Positions 8,988 to 41,517 of a stretch of DNA of 42,242 nucleotides are shown piece by piece. A program made the translations under genes and the position numbers. The notes beneath the pieces are model-generated. The model made no database searches, was not told the origin of the DNA, and was given only the letters and a program-made list of their open reading frames with translations. Source of the DNA: a phage. Position 1 is the stretch's first letter; every line of letters starts with the position of its first letter. The stretch lies in the sequence record PX871047.1; one strand, given 5' to 3'.

Positions 8988-9448
8988 TGATGGGCTTTTT
9001 CAAAGTAACTGACGTACCTTCGCGTCGCGTTGTCCAGTTTGCTCGCGTGTCTGGCTCCGGTGAGAACGTGGTGTCTATTGGGGACGAAAGTGTACTAGGT
9101 ACGCCAGTAGATGATATGCCGTTTGCAGATAAGACCGGTATTGCGCTACCCGCCGCGGGGATGCTTTACGAGATTCCGTATCTGGCTGACGCCGGCGACG
9201 TGTATTTCTCTGTGCAACCGCAGGACACGGAACTGGCAGACGGCAGCGCAACTATCACTGTCGAAGTTAAGGCGGGCAAAGCACCGTATGCGCTGACCTG
9301 GTACAAAGACGGGAAGGAAGTGGTAAATGCCCCTGAAGAGGCCTTGTCTCTGACAGTTAATGCGGTCGGCGAATACTTCGTTAAAGTTACTGATGCCGAT
9401 GGTGTGGAGGCTGTTAGTAAAGCGGCGAAGGTCATTAAGCCAGAATAA
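8987..9448 (+). CDS. Ig-like domain virion protein
   Basis: C-terminal APYALTWYKDGKEV...GEYFVKVTD, Ig-like pattern shared with the 12660 protein. Confidence 0.45.
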   Translation: MMGFFKVTDVPSRRVVQFARVSGSGENVVSIGDESVLGTPVDDMPFADKTGIALPAAGMLYEIPYLADAGDVYFSVQPQDTELADGSATITVEVKAGKAPYALTWYKDGKEVVNAPEEALSLTVNAVGEYFVKVTDADGVEAVSKAAKVIKPE

Positions 9449-9452
9449 ACTG

Positions 9453-9477
9453 AAGCCCCGTTAAGGGGCTTTATTTC
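9453..9477. terminator. bidirectional intrinsic terminator
   Basis: AAGCCCC / GGGGCTT stem followed by TATTTCC. Confidence 0.6.
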
Positions 9478-9486
9478 CATCAGAGT

Positions 9487-9582
9487 TCACCATTCCCCTC
9501 TATCTGCATCCTCAACCCCGCTAATAGCCCACACAAACAATCCTAAATTAACCAGTAACACAAATGAAATTGCTATCATCAT
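9487..9582 (-). CDS. small hydrophobic peptide (31 aa)
   Basis: GGAGGT before ATG; MMIAISFVLLVNLGLFVWAISG; own promoter 9609-9637. Confidence 0.4.
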   Translation of the reverse strand: MMIAISFVLLVNLGLFVWAISGVEDADRGEW

Positions 9583-9608
9583 AACCACCTCCACTAGGCA
9601 TTTACTGA

Positions 9609-9637
9609 ATAGTACGCTATTATGTTGGGGTGTGCAA
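9609..9637 (-). promoter_or_regulatory. promoter with embedded AATAG-N4-CTATT dyad (type A)
   Basis: Minus strand reads TTGCAC - 17 nt - TACTAT; dyad 9608-9621. Confidence 0.55.
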
Positions 9638-9956: not shown

Positions 9957-10343
9957 ATGAATCTTAAAGCAACTGTCGTAGCGGGGGCATGTTTCATCAT
10001 CCTGGCTTACGCACACGGCATCTACCAGTACCGCAGCGGCTGGAACGAAGGCCGGGCTAATCTAGCTTCACAGCAACAGCGGAAAGCACAGACCGAGTTA
10101 GCGAAGAAAACACAACGGCAGCAGCAGGACGAATCGAAGGCCGCGGCCGCTGACAACGAAGGCAAGACGAAATCAGAGGTAATTACCCGTGAAGTCGTTA
10201 AGTACATTAAAACGCCTGGCCGCAGCGTGTGCACTTTCGACGATGCTCGCGTCCTGCTCAAGTCCCGCGCCGTCACCAACGCCAATTCCATCCCCGGATA
10301 CGACAATGATGCAGCCGCCGTGCAAGCTGGCACCGCCAAGTAG
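9957..10343 (+). CDS. i-spanin (Rz-like)
   Basis: N-terminal TM segment then Gln/Lys/Glu-rich region; contains out-of-frame lipoprotein ORF. Confidence 0.6.
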   Translation: MNLKATVVAGACFIILAYAHGIYQYRSGWNEGRANLASQQQRKAQTELAKKTQRQQQDESKAAAADNEGKTKSEVITREVVKYIKTPGRSVCTFDDARVLLKSRAVTNANSIPGYDNDAAAVQAGTAK

Positions 10344-15113: not shown

Positions 15114-15526
15114 TGGGCTACTTTGAGGACTTAACAAAAGCGTTTGACGTGCCGCTGGTATCGTTCGGAACCGCCAACGGCATCAAGGTTGCGCTTGAAA
15201 ACATCGACGCGCCAACGTCAACCAATACCCCGTATCTGGCAAGTTACATGTTGCTCGCTGATACGGAGCAGGCGGATTTGTTCTTCACGGAACAACGCTC
15301 AGGTGTTTATCAGGTCGACATTAACTACGCATCGGTGAAAGGTAGCGCGCCAATCAATAAAATGGCAGACTTACTTAACACGGCATTCAAAGCAGGTAAG
15401 TCATTTTCACGTAACGACATCTGCGCCGAGGTTCAATCGGTTAGCCTGGGGCCACTGATTGTAGAAAACGGATGGGCCAAACGACCATTGTCAATTAACT
15501 TTATTGCATTCACCAAGAGGCTGTGA
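15110..15526 (+). CDS. tail completion/terminator protein (putative)
   Basis: Track ORF immediately before major tail gene. Confidence 0.4.
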   Translation: MMGYFEDLTKAFDVPLVSFGTANGIKVALENIDAPTSTNTPYLASYMLLADTEQADLFFTEQRSGVYQVDINYASVKGSAPINKMADLLNTAFKAGKSFSRNDICAEVQSVSLGPLIVENGWAKRPLSINFIAFTKRL

Positions 15527-16695
15527 ATATGGCTACAACTCCTTTTAAGGGCGCGAATACCGCGCAATTCTATGTGGCGGAAGTGACCCCGGGCGTAACA
15601 CCAAGTAACCCGGTATGGTCGCCGTTGCGCAACACTGGCGGCGTTCCTGCGGTAACCCGCGATGCGCTGACCTCCAACGAACTGGACGGCAGCCGTGAAA
15701 CTACGTCCATCCGCACTGGTAACAAGCAGGTCAGCGGAGAGTATGCCATTGAGCTTAGCTCCCGTAGTCAGGATGATTTCCTCGCTGGTGCGATGACATC
15801 TACGTGGCAGGATGGGGTAGAGATTACGGGTGCAGAAATTACGGTCGCCCCCGTAGGTAAAACATTCACCCGCGCCGCTGGTAGCTTCATTACCGACGGT
15901 GTAGAAGTTGGCGACCTGATTGCGTTCACCGACTTAACCGGCGACAACGCAAAACCGTTTATCGTGACCGCGGTTTCTGCTCTTGTAGTTACGGGCGCGG
16001 GCATTCAGCACACGCTGACAGCAGAGACTGTAACCACCGACGCTAAAACCGGCGACAAACTGGAAACCGGTAACGCATGTAAGACGTTCTCCATCCTGAC
16101 ATGGTTCAAAGGACAGTGCGGGAACCCTGACGCGTACATGTTGACCAAAGGCGTGGAAATCTCCGGTTTCACCATTGAACAGGCCGTAAACGCGATGGTG
16201 ACAGGCAGCTTCCCGTTCATCGGTCTGAGTCAGGAAATTCTTTCCACACCGCCAGCAGGTTCTGATTTCTCTCAGGTGACGTTTACTGATGAGCCGTTCT
16301 CCTCTGTAGATGTGTCTGTGTTCGACGGTTCTACGCCGTTGCGTTGCGATACTCTGACCATCACCAACGACAACGGCGCATCTGCTCAGTTCGAACTCGG
16401 CAACAGCAGCGTTGCGTTCGTGGAACGAGGTCGCGCGGCTAACACCTTCTCCATCTCCGGCAAGCTGTACGACATGGCGATGATTCAGAAGTTTATCAAC
16501 GAACAGCAGGTAGAGATTAACTCTATTCTGGCGGGGGTAAACGGTGCTATGTCTTTCAGTTTGAAACGTGCCGAACTTACGGCGGTCACACCAGAAATAT
16601 CTGGCCCGGAATCAATTACCCAAAGTATAGAAGGGCAGTCCACAGGCAATCAGTACCAGTCGTCTATTGTTATCCAGCGTATCACCTACGCATAA
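15523..16695 (+). CDS. major tail protein (putative)
   Basis: 390-aa ORF, last gene before terminator, upstream of chaperone/tape-measure genes. Confidence 0.5.
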   Translation: MNMATTPFKGANTAQFYVAEVTPGVTPSNPVWSPLRNTGGVPAVTRDALTSNELDGSRETTSIRTGNKQVSGEYAIELSSRSQDDFLAGAMTSTWQDGVEITGAEITVAPVGKTFTRAAGSFITDGVEVGDLIAFTDLTGDNAKPFIVTAVSALVVTGAGIQHTLTAETVTTDAKTGDKLETGNACKTFSILTWFKGQCGNPDAYMLTKGVEISGFTIEQAVNAMVTGSFPFIGLSQEILSTPPAGSDFSQVTFTDEPFSSVDVSVFDGSTPLRCDTLTITNDNGASAQFELGNSSVAFVERGRAANTFSISGKLYDMAMIQKFINEQQVEINSILAGVNGAMSFSLKRAELTAVTPEISGPESITQSIEGQSTGNQYQSSIVIQRITYA

Positions 16696-16700
16696 AACTA

Positions 16701-16723
16701 AGGCCCCGAAAGGGGCCTTTTTC
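16701..16723. terminator. bidirectional intrinsic terminator
   Basis: AGGCCCC / GGGGCCT stem, GAAA loop, TTTTCT; near-identical to terminator at 29235. Confidence 0.7.
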
Positions 16724-16900
16724 TCACTCACTTTTGAATGGCATTTCGTAGAAGTTAGTTAACTGACCTCTGTCACTCCGTTCTGTCATCTCTTTTGTCG
16801 CCTCTTCCTTGCTACCTACGGCGTAAATATCAACCCACTCATCCCATTCTTCGTCATATACGCGGATAACGTATATTGCCCCCATTGTGCCTTCACGCAT
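16724..16900 (-). CDS. hypothetical small acidic protein
   Basis: Last gene of reverse-strand island; track ORF 16724..16930 begins at TTG; internal ATG 16900 chosen, start uncertain. Confidence 0.4.
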   Translation of the reverse strand: MREGTMGAIYVIRVYDEEWDEWVDIYAVGSKEEATKEMTERSDRGQLTNFYEMPFKSE

Positions 16901-17462
16901 TTGGGTAAATCCCCAGGATTCTATTGGCAACCGTGGCCGCGGTTAATGTAATCTCACCAGGAATGATGGCGACGTCATGGCATACTACCCCATCAATATC
17001 GTACAGGTAGCCACGGCTATCCCCGTCAAACGTGTAGCCGTCTCGGTGCAAGCGGACGATTCGCACGTCATGCCCAGCGGCGACGATAGGGGCAACTTCA
17101 CTGGCAAACCCACCGTCGGACACCACAAAAACTTCGTCGCCGTCAGGCAAGTTTTCAGCGAGATACTTACCGAAATAATCATTGCCAAGTACAGGCTTAA
17201 TGAATTGCTCCGAGATAGCAATCATGAACTGACGTCGCGACAACCCATTAAGGAAACATTCTGGCTTTTCTTTCCGTGCCCGGTCGTCGTAGCCGTCGAG
17301 AAATTCGTGGTAAGCATCCGGGCCTAACGCTGCCCGAGCAATATTGAACATTGGATTCTTGAAACTGGTAGTTCCTTTCGCAAAGCCCATTTCTACCATC
17401 GCCATAGCAAGCGTGTCTTTCCCGCAACCCGCAGGGCCATTAAGGATAATTACCTTAGCCAT
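16893..17462 (-). CDS. P-loop nucleotide/polynucleotide kinase-like protein
   Basis: Walker A GPAGCGKDT near N-terminus; start overlaps stop of upstream phosphatase gene. Confidence 0.6.
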   Translation of the reverse strand: MAKVIILNGPAGCGKDTLAMAMVEMGFAKGTTSFKNPMFNIARAALGPDAYHEFLDGYDDRARKEKPECFLNGLSRRQFMIAISEQFIKPVLGNDYFGKYLAENLPDGDEVFVVSDGGFASEVAPIVAAGHDVRIVRLHRDGYTFDGDSRGYLYDIDGVVCHDVAIIPGEITLTAATVANRILGIYPNA

Positions 17463-17947
17463 TATTTATTGCTCCCGTGTGATTTTAAGTGTGTAGAGTT
17501 CCCGTTACAGTCGTATTCAGTAACCGCGTGCGTAGTGACTCCTAAGCCGCGGAAATGCTTAATCACCGCGGGCGAGTCGTCGAATGCGCACAATATTCTC
17601 TCCAGCCCGATAGCACGCAACACCTCTTCTTTAATTACGATGTCTTTTCTGTTGTCGTGTTTGCTGCGCATGATTAGCTGATAAAATTCGACGCGGTGGC
17701 GCTGCAGCCACATTCTGGTTTCTTTTTCTGCATCATCACTGCGGCCCGTTAAAATAATAACGGCATAGCGACGATTAAGGGCGTTACACAGTTCGATGTT
17801 ATCTTTAATGGGCGCGTCATCTTTGCAGGCCATGTTAAAAGGCTTCCACGCCCATGTTTCGTTGTAGTTATCTTTCGGTAGCAGGTGTAAACGATGAGTA
17901 CCGTCCGCCAATGTCCCGTCTAAATCGAAAATCACAATATCTTTCAT
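17462..17947 (-). CDS. HAD-family phosphatase, T4 polynucleotide kinase-phosphatase phosphatase-domain-like
   Basis: N-terminal FDLDGTLA (DxDxT) motif; later TGR...DNRKDIVIKEEV block recalled as similar to T4 Pnkp phosphatase domain. Confidence 0.55.
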   Translation of the reverse strand: MKDIVIFDLDGTLADGTHRLHLLPKDNYNETWAWKPFNMACKDDAPIKDNIELCNALNRRYAVIILTGRSDDAEKETRMWLQRHRVEFYQLIMRSKHDNRKDIVIKEEVLRAIGLERILCAFDDSPAVIKHFRGLGVTTHAVTEYDCNGNSTHLKSHGSNK

Positions 17948-19074
17948 CCCAGCATCTCCGGTGAAATAGTTAAACGTGCAACCTCACCATATTCGGCGCT
18001 ATAAGTAATTACATTTGCACTGCGCCCTGACATCCAACCGCCGCGTGAGGCATAGGCGTCTTTAGCCGCTAAGGTTCGGTGTTGCTCAACAATCATGTTA
18101 CGGCTTTCTACAATCTTCTGATGGTGCAGGTGGCCTACGTGGGCGTAGCTGTAAACACTCTCTCCGAACGCTTTGCGGAACTTAGCAATCATTACCGGTT
18201 CGATAGCGTCGAATCGTGCTTTATGCCCGTGATGGAAGAACAGCGTCGTTTTGCCGTGTTGCACCATCTTGTAAACATCCGGCGACGTATCGACGAACAC
18301 ACGAGGCTCATTGTCGTACAGCGTGCTGAACATCTCAGCCAGCCAAATCATTCCGCTTTCGTCGTGGTTCCCTTGCACGATAAGCAAGCGAACATTTTTA
18401 TGCTTAACGAGTGCCATATCAACAACACGGCGGACCATACGAATCATGTAGCGGACCAGTTTCTGATAGCGCGTGTCCGCGTCAAGAACATGACCACTCG
18501 CTGGCGTAACCGCATCCAGGCTATCGAAGTGTGCAAGGTCACCTAGCAGATTAATAACACCCGTTCCTGCATCCGGCGCTTTCTGAAACGCAGCATCGAA
18601 CCAGCGAGAGAACAGGTCTTCCGCAATCTTCATATCCCAGTCGTCGCCGCTCTCGTCGGCCCAGGCCAGCATACCGAGATGGAAATCAGACACAGTGTAA
18701 AGGTTGAGTAGTTTATCGTCGCGTTTAGCGCGGGCGGCTTTAACAGGCGCAACTGGCGTAATCTCTGACTTCATGCCTTCGATTACGGCTTTCATCAACT
18801 CGACCTGACGTTCGGCGTCAGTGTCTGTCTTAACCCATTGCAACTTAGTGTTGCCGGACTCATCCACCAGGGACGACGTCCCTTTAATCTTGTAGCCGTC
18901 AGGAACAAGGTGACTAACGTCACGCCCGTGACCCACGCCTTTCTTGGCCAGCTTCGCTTTACGGATACGAATAACGCGGTCTGAGATGCCGTATTTACGG
19001 GCAATGTCGATATTCTTCATCCCGGCGTTCAATTCTTCCTGTAACTGTTCGTCGGTTATTTTCTTCCGGGCCAT
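17944..19074 (-). CDS. HTH-domain calcineurin-like metallophosphoesterase
   Basis: N-terminal HTH-like NIDIARKYGISDRVIRIRK; metallophosphoesterase motifs DFHLG, GDLAHFD, GNHD, HHGH, GHLHH. Confidence 0.6.
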   Translation of the reverse strand: MARKKITDEQLQEELNAGMKNIDIARKYGISDRVIRIRKAKLAKKGVGHGRDVSHLVPDGYKIKGTSSLVDESGNTKLQWVKTDTDAERQVELMKAVIEGMKSEITPVAPVKAARAKRDDKLLNLYTVSDFHLGMLAWADESGDDWDMKIAEDLFSRWFDAAFQKAPDAGTGVINLLGDLAHFDSLDAVTPASGHVLDADTRYQKLVRYMIRMVRRVVDMALVKHKNVRLLIVQGNHDESGMIWLAEMFSTLYDNEPRVFVDTSPDVYKMVQHGKTTLFFHHGHKARFDAIEPVMIAKFRKAFGESVYSYAHVGHLHHQKIVESRNMIVEQHRTLAAKDAYASRGGWMSGRSANVITYSAEYGEVARLTISPEMLG

Positions 19075-19112
19075 GCTTATGTCCTCATGTGTAGGATTTG
19101 TCCTATACTAGC

Positions 19113-19304
19113 TTACTTCTCGTTAACATTCGAGTTGCAAGCCCAGATTAAAATAAAGACCCACGGCAGCAGAGCCCAGCCAAGAAACAGGTTAGCCATG
19201 AATATTGCCAACTTCGCTTTATGGCCACGCATATGGGCTACTAAAAACGGGATAAAATAAACTAAAACGATAATGATTAAGAAGAACATAGTAATGCCAG
19301 TCAT
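19113..19304 (-). CDS. superinfection-immunity-like small membrane protein
   Basis: Two TM segments with RGH...NLFLGWALLPW pattern; AGGAGC RBS; first gene after promoter 19346-19374. Confidence 0.5.
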   Translation of the reverse strand: MTGITMFFLIIIVLVYFIPFLVAHMRGHKAKLAIFMANLFLGWALLPWVFILIWACNSNVNEK

Positions 19305-19345
19305 GGTGTAGCTCCTGTTTGAGTTAACATTGTTGGTGTAAGTGA

Positions 19346-19374
19346 ATAGTATCCTATTATGTTGGGGTGTGCAA
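19346..19374 (-). promoter_or_regulatory. promoter with embedded AATAG-N4-CTATT dyad (type A)
   Basis: Minus strand TTGCAC - 17 nt - TACTAT; 33-bp block 19342-19374 identical to reverse complement of 41273-41305. Confidence 0.6.
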
Positions 19375-19481
19375 GTAATGTGTTAGAATTATTTTGCGCC
19401 TAGTGTCGCACACGAAAAGCGGGTGGTTCCCGTCTGGCGCATTCACATTAACCAGTAACCTCTTAACCAAAGGATTAAAGA

Positions 19482-19898
19482 ATGAAACTTTCTGATTTTT
19501 ATTACGAAGCTGAGGCAGAAAAAGGCGCCCGTATGCCGATCCCACTGAAAGACGGCACCGATTCAGGGGAGTGGCTGAACGTTGTTTCACCGGAGGCAGA
19601 CGTTGCCGTTAAAGCTATGAGGGCGTTTACACTTGCGTACCGCGCGGCATTAGGTAAATTGAAACCGCTTCGTGATAAATGCGAGGAACTGAAAGATTTC
19701 TCGGAATACAATATCAAGATGGAAGACGCCGCAACGGACCTTAACCGCCAGTTAGCGCTTGAACTGGTTAACGGTTGGAGTCTCGACGATGAATTTAATA
19801 AAGAGAACCTAAATACTCTTTTCTCACAATATACACGACTCGCTGAACACGTTGTTGTTTTCCACAATGAACAGCTACGCCAATTGCAGGAAAAGTAG
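19482..19898 (+). CDS. tail assembly chaperone (G-like, putative)
   Basis: Acidic 138-aa ORF directly upstream of tape measure; followed by -1 frame ORF. Confidence 0.45.
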   Translation: MKLSDFYYEAEAEKGARMPIPLKDGTDSGEWLNVVSPEADVAVKAMRAFTLAYRAALGKLKPLRDKCEELKDFSEYNIKMEDAATDLNRQLALELVNGWSLDDEFNKENLNTLFSQYTRLAEHVVVFHNEQLRQLQEK

Positions 19899-20263
19899 AC
19901 GCGTTGCTCCAGTTTGCCCGTTGGAACTTCATAACCCGCCACAAACGGCGGGAGTTTGACAGTATCGCAGATGGGCATAAAGCCGCGCTAATTGCTATGG
20001 GGGCTATGCAAGACGCGCCGGAAGCAACGCAGGACACCGGGCCGGAATGCCCCCCTGAACTATTAACCACCTTCGAGAAGTACCGGGAAATCAAATTTAC
20101 CCGCCGAGTGGATGACGACGGCATCAAGATGTACCCGCGCGAACAGTTAAGATGGTCGGATTTAGTGGCATACAGCACCGTTTCAGGCCAGAATATAGGC
20201 ATGTTTGAATCTGACATCATCATGAGCTTAGACGCTATTTTCGAGGGTAGAAACGATGGCTGA
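19889..20263 (+). CDS. tail assembly chaperone frameshift extension (GT-like, putative)
   Basis: ORF in -1 frame relative to 19482..19898, open from 19871; candidate slip site A_AAG at 19892-19895 next to TAG stop. Confidence 0.35.
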   Translation, partial: GKVDALLQFARWNFITRHKRREFDSIADGHKAALIAMGAMQDAPEATQDTGPECPPELLTTFEKYREIKFTRRVDDDGIKMYPREQLRWSDLVAYSTVSGQNIGMFESDIIMSLDAIFEGRNDG

Positions 20264-22592
20264 TGTAGCTAGTTTAGTTGTAAAGGTATCAGAGCAAGGC
20301 GCGAAAGCTACATCTGACCGCCTTGATAATCTCTCCAAGTCGGCAAAAGTAGCAGGGGCAGCCGTAGCTGGCCTCGCTTCCATCGTCGCCGCTACCGCGT
20401 ACAAGGCCGCACAGGAACTGGTAGACTCCCAACGGCAACTGGACAAGATGTCCGCCAGCCTGAAAACGCTAACCGGAAGCACGCAGGGTGCAAGACAGGC
20501 GTTAAGCATCCTGCAAGACTTCGCGCGCGACACTCCGTATGGCCTTGAACAGGCGGTGGAGGGATTCCGCAAACTTGTGGCGCTTGGTCTTACACCGTCA
20601 GAAGAAGCGTTGCGCTCCTACGGAAACACCGCCGCCGCTATGGGTAAAGACCTAAATCAGATGATTGAGGCCGTTGCGGACGCCAGTACATTTGAATTTG
20701 AGCGCCTTAAAGAATTCGGCATCAAGGCCAAGCAAAACAAAGACGATGTTGAATTTACATTCCAGGGCACTACTACGGTGGTTAAGAAGAGCGCTGCCGA
20801 CATCGAGCAATACCTGCTCAACATTGGTAACGTAAACTTCGCGGGGGCTATGGCGGACCAGGCCAACACACTTAACGGGGCCATCGCCAGTGCCAGCGAT
20901 TCCTGGTCGCAGTTAAAAATGACACTGGCTACCAGCCTTGATGTTGGTGCTCTTGCGGGGCCTATCCGGTACATCGATGATTTAATCCAGGAACTTAACG
21001 CACAGGTAGCATCCGGTGAACTCGCCGCCGAGATGCGTATGTGGGGTGTCATCGCGTCGGAAGTAGGAAGCGCGATAGAGATGTCGTTCGATGCGGCATT
21101 TGGTTTCGTAGGTGATGCGATAAATGGACTTAATGAACTTTGGGATTTTAGCAGTAAAAGTATCACCGACAGCGGCGAACAAACGGCGACAACCATCGCG
21201 GAATCAGCTGCCGATGCGCTCGATTTCATCGCAGAAGAATTTACCGCGATGGAGCGCTTCTTTGAAGATATGGTTAAAGGGGCACAGGACGCCGGGCGAC
21301 TAGTGAAAGCAGCCTTCACACCGGGGGAATCTGTAGACGTCGCAAAAAACATTAACTTCCAGCTGGGTATGGCACTGGATACTCAGCGTGATGTTGCGGA
21401 CCTGACCCGTAAAAGTTTCCGCGAACAGGTGGAGGCCCAGCAAAATATTGTCGCGCTTAAACGCGCAGCATATGACATCGACAAAGAAGCCGCTAAGGAA
21501 GAAGGGCTTAGTAAATTTAAGGTAACTGGTACTGGTGGCGGGTCCGAAGATGATAACGCTAGCGCAAAAGCCGCCAAGAAAGCTGCGGATGCGTTCGAGC
21601 GCCAGAAGAAAGCCGCTGAGGATTTCTACTACCAGTCGATTCATCTCAATGATGACGTATTCCAGAAAATAGAAGCCAACCAGGAACAGCAGTTAACCAA
21701 GCTACAGGAGTTTTACGGCAATCAGCTTCTTAGCGACCAGCAATACGAAAACGCCAAAACTCAGATTATGCTGGAAGCGGATACTGCTCGCCAGGAGGAA
21801 CTCGCTAAGCGAGAGAAAGAAAGGCAGGAAAAGAACCAGAAAGGCGAGGACTTCATGGCTCAGATTATGGGCCAGAACGCCGCTGAGCTTGAGCTTCTGG
21901 AGATTCAGGAGCAACAAAAACTTGACGTTGCAGACAAATACCGCGAACAGAACCTTATTAACGAGGAGCAGTACCAAGCAGCGGTTAACGCGATAAATGA
22001 CCAGTACGCATTGAAACGCGCCAACGCGACAGGTAATGCTTTCGGGATGATGGCGGATAATATTAAGTCGTCTCTCGGCGAAGCGTCTACGGCGTACAAA
22101 GCGTTTGCTATCGCCCAGGCCACCATAGCCACATACACATCCGCTATAGAGGCATATAAGTCCGCGTCCGCGATTCCTATTGTCGGCTGGGTGCTCGGCC
22201 CGGTGGCTGCTGCCGCAGCCGTAGCAGCGGGTCTGGCGAACATTGGTAAGATTCGCTCCGCACGTGAACAGGGGGGTAACCTAGCCGCCGGTCAGTTATC
22301 TACCATCGCAGAACGAAACAAACCAGAAGTTATCATGCCAGCAGGCGCATCGCGTGTTCGCACCGCACAGCAAATGAAAGAGATTATGGGCGAGAACGGC
22401 AACAAGTCAGGCGGTGACAGCGTTACAATCGTCAACAACACCACCGGACGTGTTGATTCCGCCGTTACAGAGCGTGACGACGAAGGGCGGTTACGTGTTA
22501 TCATCAGCGAAACAGTATCGGCGGCGTTACAAGACAGCAACAGTGCAATCTCTAAGTCACGCCGTGCTACACGAAACCAGCCGGGGTATTAA
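20256..22592 (+). CDS. tail tape measure protein
   Basis: 778 aa, Ala/Gln/Glu-rich coiled-coil character, position after chaperone pair. Confidence 0.7.
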   Translation: MADVASLVVKVSEQGAKATSDRLDNLSKSAKVAGAAVAGLASIVAATAYKAAQELVDSQRQLDKMSASLKTLTGSTQGARQALSILQDFARDTPYGLEQAVEGFRKLVALGLTPSEEALRSYGNTAAAMGKDLNQMIEAVADASTFEFERLKEFGIKAKQNKDDVEFTFQGTTTVVKKSAADIEQYLLNIGNVNFAGAMADQANTLNGAIASASDSWSQLKMTLATSLDVGALAGPIRYIDDLIQELNAQVASGELAAEMRMWGVIASEVGSAIEMSFDAAFGFVGDAINGLNELWDFSSKSITDSGEQTATTIAESAADALDFIAEEFTAMERFFEDMVKGAQDAGRLVKAAFTPGESVDVAKNINFQLGMALDTQRDVADLTRKSFREQVEAQQNIVALKRAAYDIDKEAAKEEGLSKFKVTGTGGGSEDDNASAKAAKKAADAFERQKKAAEDFYYQSIHLNDDVFQKIEANQEQQLTKLQEFYGNQLLSDQQYENAKTQIMLEADTARQEELAKREKERQEKNQKGEDFMAQIMGQNAAELELLEIQEQQKLDVADKYREQNLINEEQYQAAVNAINDQYALKRANATGNAFGMMADNIKSSLGEASTAYKAFAIAQATIATYTSAIEAYKSASAIPIVGWVLGPVAAAAAVAAGLANIGKIRSAREQGGNLAAGQLSTIAERNKPEVIMPAGASRVRTAQQMKEIMGENGNKSGGDSVTIVNNTTGRVDSAVTERDDEGRLRVIISETVSAALQDSNSAISKSRRATRNQPGY

Positions 22593-41234: not shown

Positions 41235-41272
41235 GAATCACAACGGCAACGTAACTATTCTCTTGCACACCC

Positions 41273-41301
41273 CAACATAATAGGATACTATTCACTTATC
41301 G
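41273..41301 (+). promoter_or_regulatory. early promoter with embedded AATAG-N4-CTATT dyad (type A)
   Basis: TTGCAC - 17 nt - TACTAT; dyad 41289-41302. Confidence 0.6.
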
Positions 41302-41325: not shown

Positions 41326-41517
41326 ATGTTTAAAAAGGGTCAGTTGGTTAAAAGTGCCGACGGTAAACACGGCATAATTGAATTAAAATCATCTTTATTT
41401 CCCGGGCAGTACGTAGTGACTGTGCAAAAGGTGAGAGGTGTAAATTCGAAAACATACGTAGCAGAGAGGAACTTAGAACTCATCGGCAACAATTTTAAAT
41501 TCAAAGGGGCGAAGTGA
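41326..41517 (+). CDS. hypothetical early protein
   Basis: ATG after AGAGGAG (track ORF begins GTG 41317). Confidence 0.5.
   Translation: MFKKGQLVKSADGKHGIIELKSSLFPGQYVVTVQKVRGVNSKTYVAERNLELIGNNFKFKGAK

Follow-up and report, generated by a model that had tools for sequence, protein, structure and literature searches.

The 63-aa product of a small minus-strand gene, here called imm, is correctly placed, on profile and alignment evidence, in the family of the T4 superinfection immunity protein Imm (PF14373). The gene lies in a stretch of 42,242 nucleotides of phage DNA (record PX871047.1), which was analysed at its full length and is referred to below as the window. The imm gene would be transcribed as the first of an accessory operon, and the most likely function of its product, which we consider reasonably probable, is to block the entry of DNA from later phages of the same group at the inner membrane. 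By sequence, the carrier is a Kagunavirus-like virulent siphophage (Guernseyvirinae), and for this phage group imm is an ordinary gene that is already known by annotation.

The imm gene and its product

19113..19304, minus strand: imm, encoding a 63-aa predicted small inner-membrane protein of PF14373 (T4 Imm family); evidence from reading frame, profile, BLASTP, AlphaFold2 model and dN/dS
19312..19316, minus strand: ribosome-binding site AGGAG, 7 nt 5' of the ATG, read from the sequence

The reading frame opens with an ATG at 19304 and ends at 19113, and its 63 codons specify MTGITMFFLIIIVLVYFIPFLVAHMRGHKAKLAIFMANLFLGWALLPWVFILIWACNSNVNEK. An earlier note on this DNA, made from the letters alone, had placed a 63-aa ORF at 19113-19304; this is confirmed, on the minus strand and with a ribosome-binding site, and the residue pattern quoted there corresponds to Imm residues 20-48. 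Hydropathy gives two hydrophobic stretches (residues ~4-23 and 32-56), between which lies a basic loop, H24-K31, with H24, R26, H28, K29 and K31. The GC content of imm is 40%, against 51% for the whole window. Since GC3 is 53%, the low value is attributed to hydrophobic codons and not to a foreign origin. Comparisons with relatives gave dN/dS values of 0.03-0.22, and imm is therefore under purifying selection.

Family assignment and predicted structure

Imm matched the Pfam model PF14373 (Imm_superinfect) with E=4.5e-14 and 52.5 bits over profile positions 1-42 of 42, well above the curated gathering cut-off of 27.9 bits, and PHROG 1039 'immunity to superinfection' with E=3e-23. T4 Imm (comparison sequence NC_000866 26373-26624) matched the same Pfam model with E=7e-16 and likewise PHROG 1039, and the two proteins could be aligned directly by pairwise BLASTP (28% identity over 54 aa, E=3e-12). 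The earlier note had described the product as a protein of the superinfection-immunity type and had named a profile search as a check; run here, that search returned the immunity families PF14373 and PHROG 1039, and together with the T4 Imm alignment it bears the description out.

The family is large. When 1.84 billion representatives, clustered at 50% identity, were searched exhaustively with phmmer, 6527 family clusters were recovered at E<=1e-3, while a word-indexed homologue search with Imm found 9 close relatives only. Longer, multi-domain members of 140-333 aa also occur, some of them fused to a zinc ribbon, and therefore not all members need be exclusion factors. A 40-sequence family alignment defined the motif YF-P...A..R.H...I...N...GW....W.....W, every residue of which is present in Imm (Y16, F17, P19, A23, R26, H28, I34, N38, G42, W43, W48 and W54). 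In the pairwise alignment R33 of T4 Imm corresponds to R26 of Imm and W50 to W43, two positions that are each at least 90% conserved in the 40-sequence alignment.

With the same 40 sequences as input, AlphaFold2 gave a model of Imm with a pLDDT of 95.7 and a pTM of 0.77. It consists of four helices (2-16, 18-26, 31-41 and 45-55) with kinks at P19 and at G42-W43. The two transmembrane segments proposed in the earlier note stand as two hydrophobic stretches, but the model splits them into four short helices; the proposal is a fair first description of the topology. When the model was compared with BFVD using Foldseek, the matches were all phage 'superinfection immunity' proteins, with TM-scores of 0.68-0.78. 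Searches of the PDB by sequence and by fold and of NCBIfam returned no match to Imm, and PADLOC-DB gave 0 families at E<=0.01. Membership of DUF3302 (PF11742) was considered and rejected, the weak overlap at residues 6-56 reaching 23.6 bits, below the curated cut-off of 32.

Carrier phage and conserved genomic slot

E. coli phages such as EC3-1 and vB_Eco_ORH_001 share about 90% identity with the window, which carries its own replication genes. Jerseyvirus relatives have been reported to lack integrase and excisionase genes (PMC8425127).

Imm homologues are encoded in about 378 GenBank phage records, and the slot in which the orthologues lie is common to hundreds of E. coli and Salmonella phages. 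An orthologue occupied the same slot in 36/36 IMG/VR loci (these loci having been recovered with the Imm protein), and in Salmonella phage wksl3 it likewise lies beside the tail assembly chaperone (TAC) and tape measure genes. The annotated Kagunavirus and Jerseyvirus orthologues, such as those of K1ind1-3, Golestan, wksl3, SE2 and SETP13, share both slot and strand with imm, between the metallophosphoesterase and chaperone genes, and their proteins are 70-97% identical to Imm. The exact sequence of Imm differs from those annotated and is new, the best database match being 95-97% identical; relative to the annotated orthologues, what marks the window is that the N-terminal helix of Imm and the tape measure module are both of 'type A' (see below). 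Many of the GenBank orthologue records are already titled 'superinfection immunity protein'.

Published accounts of imm in relatives conflict with one another. In PMC8425127 it is a Jerseyvirus core gene with a mechanism called unknown, in phages that stay lytic; PMC12645636 describes the homologue as 'involved in cell lysis' and PMC9825357 as 'likely involved in gene regulation', neither of which finds support in the family evidence.

The minus-strand accessory block

Imm is encoded by the first ORF of a minus-strand block (19304..16724), flanked by the major tail gene (15523-16695) on one side and by the chaperone (from 19482) and tape measure genes (together 19482-22592) on the other. After imm the block comprises:

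19075..19112, minus strand: 38-nt gap between imm and the metallophosphoesterase gene, without a terminator-like site
17944..19074, minus strand: metallophosphoesterase ('DNA repair exonuclease', PHROG 704) with an N-terminal HTH-like region; conserved neighbour of imm
17462..17947, minus strand: HAD-type PNKP-like phosphatase (Pfam PF25109, E=4e-19; PHROG 415); accessory
16893..17462, minus strand: P-loop kinase, dNMP-kinase-like (PHROG 139); accessory, co-occurring with the phosphatase
16724..16930, minus strand: 68-aa ORF, the last gene of the block, present in a few relatives
16700..16719, minus strand: intrinsic-terminator-like hairpin closing the block (8 pairs, 6 of them G-C, and a T-rich tail)

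The minus strand holds no terminator-like site between imm and the hairpin at 16719..16700, and read-through from imm into the metallophosphoesterase gene is likely. The phosphatase gene overlaps the metallophosphoesterase gene by 4 nt. Pfam and PHROG profile searches with the 68-aa ORF found no family match.

The earlier note had seen an unusual combination in the co-transcription of imm with phosphoesterase, phosphatase and kinase genes. For the phosphatase and kinase this does not hold up, as the two genes are present in 11/36 related loci and in no Jerseyvirus locus, and their presence is independent of the Imm type (Fisher p=1.0). In other relatives an HNH endonuclease, Ant or other genes stand in their place, and the only conserved adjacency in the block is that of Imm and the metallophosphoesterase. 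On this distribution, the idea that Imm works together with the phosphatase and kinase was rejected. In the block, variable accessory genes share one transcription unit, and they do not form a functional module centred on Imm.

The metallophosphoesterase, the HAD PNKP-type phosphatase and the P-loop kinase (16893-19074) are themselves reminiscent of T4 Pnk split into separate proteins, and the three ORFs resemble a nucleic-acid end-healing toolkit. Scans of the window found no tRNA gene and nothing in Rfam.

A repeated promoter-like element 5' of imm

19345..19374, minus strand toward imm: promoter/operator-like element, candidate imm promoter, from repeat analysis

Repeat analysis of the window revealed a 30-nt element, AATAGTATCCTATTATGTTGGGGTGTGCAA, in three copies where none would be expected:

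9608-9637, plus strand, with two mismatches
19345-19374, plus strand
41263-41292, minus strand

The strands given for the copies are those of AATAGTATCCTATTATGTTGGGGTGTGCAA as written; the promoter-like arrangement TTGCAC-17-TACTAT lies on its reverse strand. Toward imm the element thus presents TTGCAC (19374..19369), a 17-nt spacer and TACTAT (19351..19346), about 40 nt 5' of the imm ATG, and a palindrome, AATAG-N4-CTATT, overlaps the -10. Within ~14-35 nt of each copy, in the TTGCAC-17-TACTAT orientation, there is a ribosome-binding site and the ATG of a small gene: beyond the copy at 41263-41292 a small ORF starts at 41326, and the copy at 9608-9637 precedes a 31-aa hydrophobic peptide (9581..9487) with its own terminator hairpin. 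Conservation of the element and of the remainder of the intergenic region between imm and TAC is 83-100% across all Kagunavirus loci and partial in Jerseyviruses. A scan for consensus sigma-70 sites 5' of imm on the minus strand found none, and the element was not called because its -35 is poor, matching at only 3/6 positions.

From its repetition and placement, the element is probably a shared promoter or operator, and it may work bidirectionally or as an operator. The earlier note had also called imm the promoter-proximal gene of the island; imm is indeed the first ORF and has a conserved candidate promoter-like element 5' of it, so 'promoter-proximal' is a plausible reading of the sequence.

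Several further observations concern the element and its surroundings. A 36-nt stretch at the element has a counterpart in Salmonella phage PK1 as well, in a region without annotation. The copy at 9608-9637 is part of a minus-strand mini-unit (9445-9637) that sits antisense within the head/lysis gene block and consists of the element, GGAGGTG, the hydrophobic 31-aa peptide (MMIAISFVLLVNLGLFVWAISGVEDADRGEW, 9581..9487, minus strand) and AAGCCCCTTAACGGGGCTT, a terminator-like hairpin with a T-rich tail behind it. Matches to the mini-unit were found in 113 phage records, only 4 of which have the peptide part, the rest having the element alone. On the other side of the imm element, the intergenic leader 5' of the tail assembly chaperone gene (19383-19501) exceeds both the neighbouring 5' end of imm and the TAC coding sequence in conservation: its identity is 83-100% throughout the Kagunavirus loci, and Jerseyviruses retain it in part. 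The leader holds a small hairpin, CGGGAACCACCCG followed by CTTTTCG (minus strand, ~19431..19412), with no match in Rfam.

N-terminal mosaic patch and tape measure types

19235..19323, minus strand: mosaic patch comprising the ribosome-binding site and imm codons 1-23 (N-terminal helix), defined by identity profile, alignment and synonymous sites
20256..22592, plus strand: tape measure protein (TMP), 778 aa; the incoming phage's copy is the putative target of Imm, by analogy with T4

Kagunavirus Imm proteins fall into two types, A and B, which differ almost only in codons 1-23. Between the types the mosaic patch has 31-63% nucleotide identity, against 83-100% in both flanks, and residues 24-63, the Imm core, are nearly invariant. 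Diversifying selection on the N-terminal helix was considered and ruled out by the synonymous sites, which are saturated in codons 2-23 (pS 0.8-1.0) compared with a dS of ~0.3 in codons 24-63. This pattern indicates that the patch is an old mosaic replacement and not the product of fast adaptive change.

In 23/25 Kagunavirus genomes the Imm type agreed with the TAC/TMP type (Fisher p=5e-5, with no correction for relatedness), the remaining two, L007 and L024, being recombinants; it did not match the type of the major tail gene (Fisher p=0.11). Functional matching of Imm and TMP by co-evolution may play a part, but the agreement was not accepted as evidence for it. The variable segments lie only ~180 nt apart and the core, as defined in T4, is nearly identical between types, so that linkage is the simpler explanation of the co-variation.

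In the tape measure protein, residues 29-50 and 636-664 form hydrophobic segments, the second of them within the C-terminal third. Guernseyvirinae TMPs are mosaics in which identity between types falls to 2-47% over the N-terminal and middle parts (residues ~153-470), while the C-terminal third (511-778) is 60-90% conserved across three otherwise divergent types, and 70-90% through residue 710. Comparison of TMP with T4 gp29 detected no similarity (best pairwise E=0.51), and the two belong to different Pfam families. Therefore the target of Imm cannot simply be transferred from T4.

An alternative occupant of the slot

About 99 Guernseyvirinae records, including NTEC3, BASEL Bas70 and the type phage Jersey, have an unrelated 108-aa protein in the imm slot, always between the TAC and metallophosphoesterase genes. 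It belongs to PHROG 14165 and begins with a signal-peptide-like sequence; Pfam, NCBIfam and PADLOC searches gave no match. Three of its loci were examined:

L001, 3591-3917: phage NTEC3
L041, 3001-3330: phage Jersey
L042, 3001-3327: third locus

Imm was absent from all three, and these phages carry further chaperone/tape-measure types. Since about 99 records, Jersey among them, are without Imm, the published statement that all Jerseyviruses carry imm (PMC8425127) is not strictly right and is contradicted by phage Jersey itself.

Judging from its N-terminal sequence and position, the 108-aa protein could be an alternative periplasmic exclusion factor. A more far-reaching and, in our estimate, improbable idea is that the position 5' of TAC/TMP is an exchangeable 'entry-exclusion slot' in the Guernseyvirinae, whose occupant (type A Imm, type B Imm or the 108-aa protein) fits the phage's own TMP type, with the Imm helix or the 108-aa protein setting which TMPs are excluded. 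If this were true, the T4 mechanism involving Imm and TMP would extend to siphophages and a specificity module would be revealed.

Proposed function and comparison with T4 Imm and HK97 gp15

The 'immunity' in the name of the family is taken from T4, where imm is expressed early and where Imm has been studied in a 2026 preprint, bioRxiv 10.64898/2026.03.06.709160. In that work T4 Imm co-purified with gp29, the T4 tape measure protein, whose helical-bundle domain it bound, and this binding is proposed to shut the DNA conduit in the inner membrane. Plasmid-expressed T4 Imm, with no other phage gene, lowered the plating of incoming T4, and the substitutions R33A and W50A weakened exclusion. T4 Imm has been compared with colicin immunity proteins, and the authors drew a parallel with HK97 gp15 (bioRxiv 10.64898/2026.03.06.709160).

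Imm has the same Pfam domain over its full length as T4 Imm, the founding member of PF14373 (83 aa). In both proteins the conserved core comes after a hydrophobic N-terminal helix, and both are encoded by virulent phages. In contrast, T4 Imm is 20 aa longer and has a charged C-terminal tail that is missing from Imm; Imm is carried by a siphophage whose TMP has no sequence similarity to gp29; and imm adjoins tail genes, whereas T4 imm is found in the early replication-gene region. HK97 gp15 resembles Imm in other respects, being a 62-aa membrane protein, a moron-encoded superinfection exclusion protein whose gene is flanked by those for the tail assembly chaperone and the tape measure protein. 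As cited in bioRxiv 10.64898/2026.03.06.709160, an interaction of gp15 with TMP has been reported and the proposal is alike, namely that TMP-dependent DNA entry is blocked. Unlike Imm, gp15 is expressed from a prophage, and its single hydrophobic helix precedes a charged C-terminal region. Homology between Imm and gp15 was ruled out by profile-profile comparison (hhalign probability 0.7%).

We propose the following sequence of events by analogy with T4. The imm gene would be transcribed, probably from the conserved upstream promoter-like element, as the first gene of the minus-strand accessory operon, and the protein would take up a position in the inner membrane of the infected cell. [quoted passage not shown] This reading is supported by the family match, by the conservation in Imm (R26 and W43) of the residues whose substitution weakens exclusion in T4, by the retention of the genomic slot and by the C-terminal third of TMP, which contains the hydrophobic segment 636-664 and, like the Imm core, is conserved across types; imm is in addition under purifying selection. 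When imm is expressed, whether it excludes other phages and whether it acts on their tape measure protein are matters of inference. Our literature search on Guernseyvirinae Imm found no experiment or exclusion phenotype. In the transcriptome of a related Kagunavirus the imm homologue was expressed late, peaking after 100 min, in a study whose time scale and annotation are weak (PMC12645636); late expression would be poor timing for exclusion.

Alternative functions

One alternative is that Imm is a generic small membrane protein, with some other or only marginal function in the membrane, belonging to a family that was named from a single member. This would sit well with the size and make-up of the family, as many of its 6527 cluster representatives come from unannotated metagenomic sequence and some are longer with zinc ribbons, with the lack of PADLOC and NCBIfam matches, and with the roughly 99 related phages, Jersey included, that have an unrelated gene in place of imm. 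However, both residues needed for T4 Imm activity are conserved, purifying selection on imm is strong and hundreds of virulent phages infecting hosts of two genera have kept the slot, so that we regard this alternative as unlikely.

The proximity of imm to the chaperone and tape measure genes, which are divergently transcribed from it, raises a second alternative, in which Imm is self-protective and shields the inner membrane from the phage's own newly made TMP or from 'lysis from without', exclusion being a by-product. The agreement between the N-terminal type of Imm and the phage's own chaperone/TMP type in 23/25 genomes would be expected if this were so, as would the late expression reported for the homologue (PMC12645636), and T4 Imm both binds a TMP and has been compared with colicin immunity proteins (bioRxiv 10.64898/2026.03.06.709160). 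The agreement of types can, however, be explained by linkage over the ~180 nt between the variable segments, and T4 Imm alone, expressed from a plasmid, lowers T4 plating, exclusion therefore being a direct activity of the prototype. Self-protection as the primary role is, in our view, improbable.

Imm is small and has two hydrophobic stretches, as might a holin- or antiholin-like protein that sets the timing of lysis. Holins typically have a charged C-terminal tail, though, and Imm has none; nor does it match a holin family in Pfam or PHROG, and imm is not beside the lysis genes, an Rz-like spanin being encoded at 9957-10343. The source given in PMC12645636 for describing the homologue as 'involved in cell lysis' is the T4 imm paper, whose subject is exclusion, and papers on relatives place dedicated lysis genes elsewhere, including a class II holin (PMC9825357, PMC8425127). 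A role in lysis timing is thus very unlikely.

The shortness of imm and its low GC relative to the window might suggest a spurious ORF, a chance frame in AT-rich intergenic DNA. Conservation across two phage genera and a dN/dS far below 1 already refute this reading, which also stands against strong profile E-values and a ribosome-binding site and has practically no chance of being right; the GC3 value traces the low GC to hydrophobic codons.

Implications

With these alternatives weighed, blocking of DNA entry by Imm is the function that we favour. The finding itself is of small added value, as the label is correct and is already in GenBank and in at least one paper. Phages of the genera Kagunavirus and Jerseyvirus are popular candidates for therapy and biocontrol, where the practical relevance of imm is modest; if it works as an exclusion gene, it would bear on how related phages behave together in cocktails and in co-infections. 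Since the Imm core is near-invariant, the TMP types are distinct, and natural recombinants as well as replacements by the 108-aa protein exist, this phage group offers a convenient siphophage system in which to test the generality of the T4 mechanism involving Imm and the tape measure protein.
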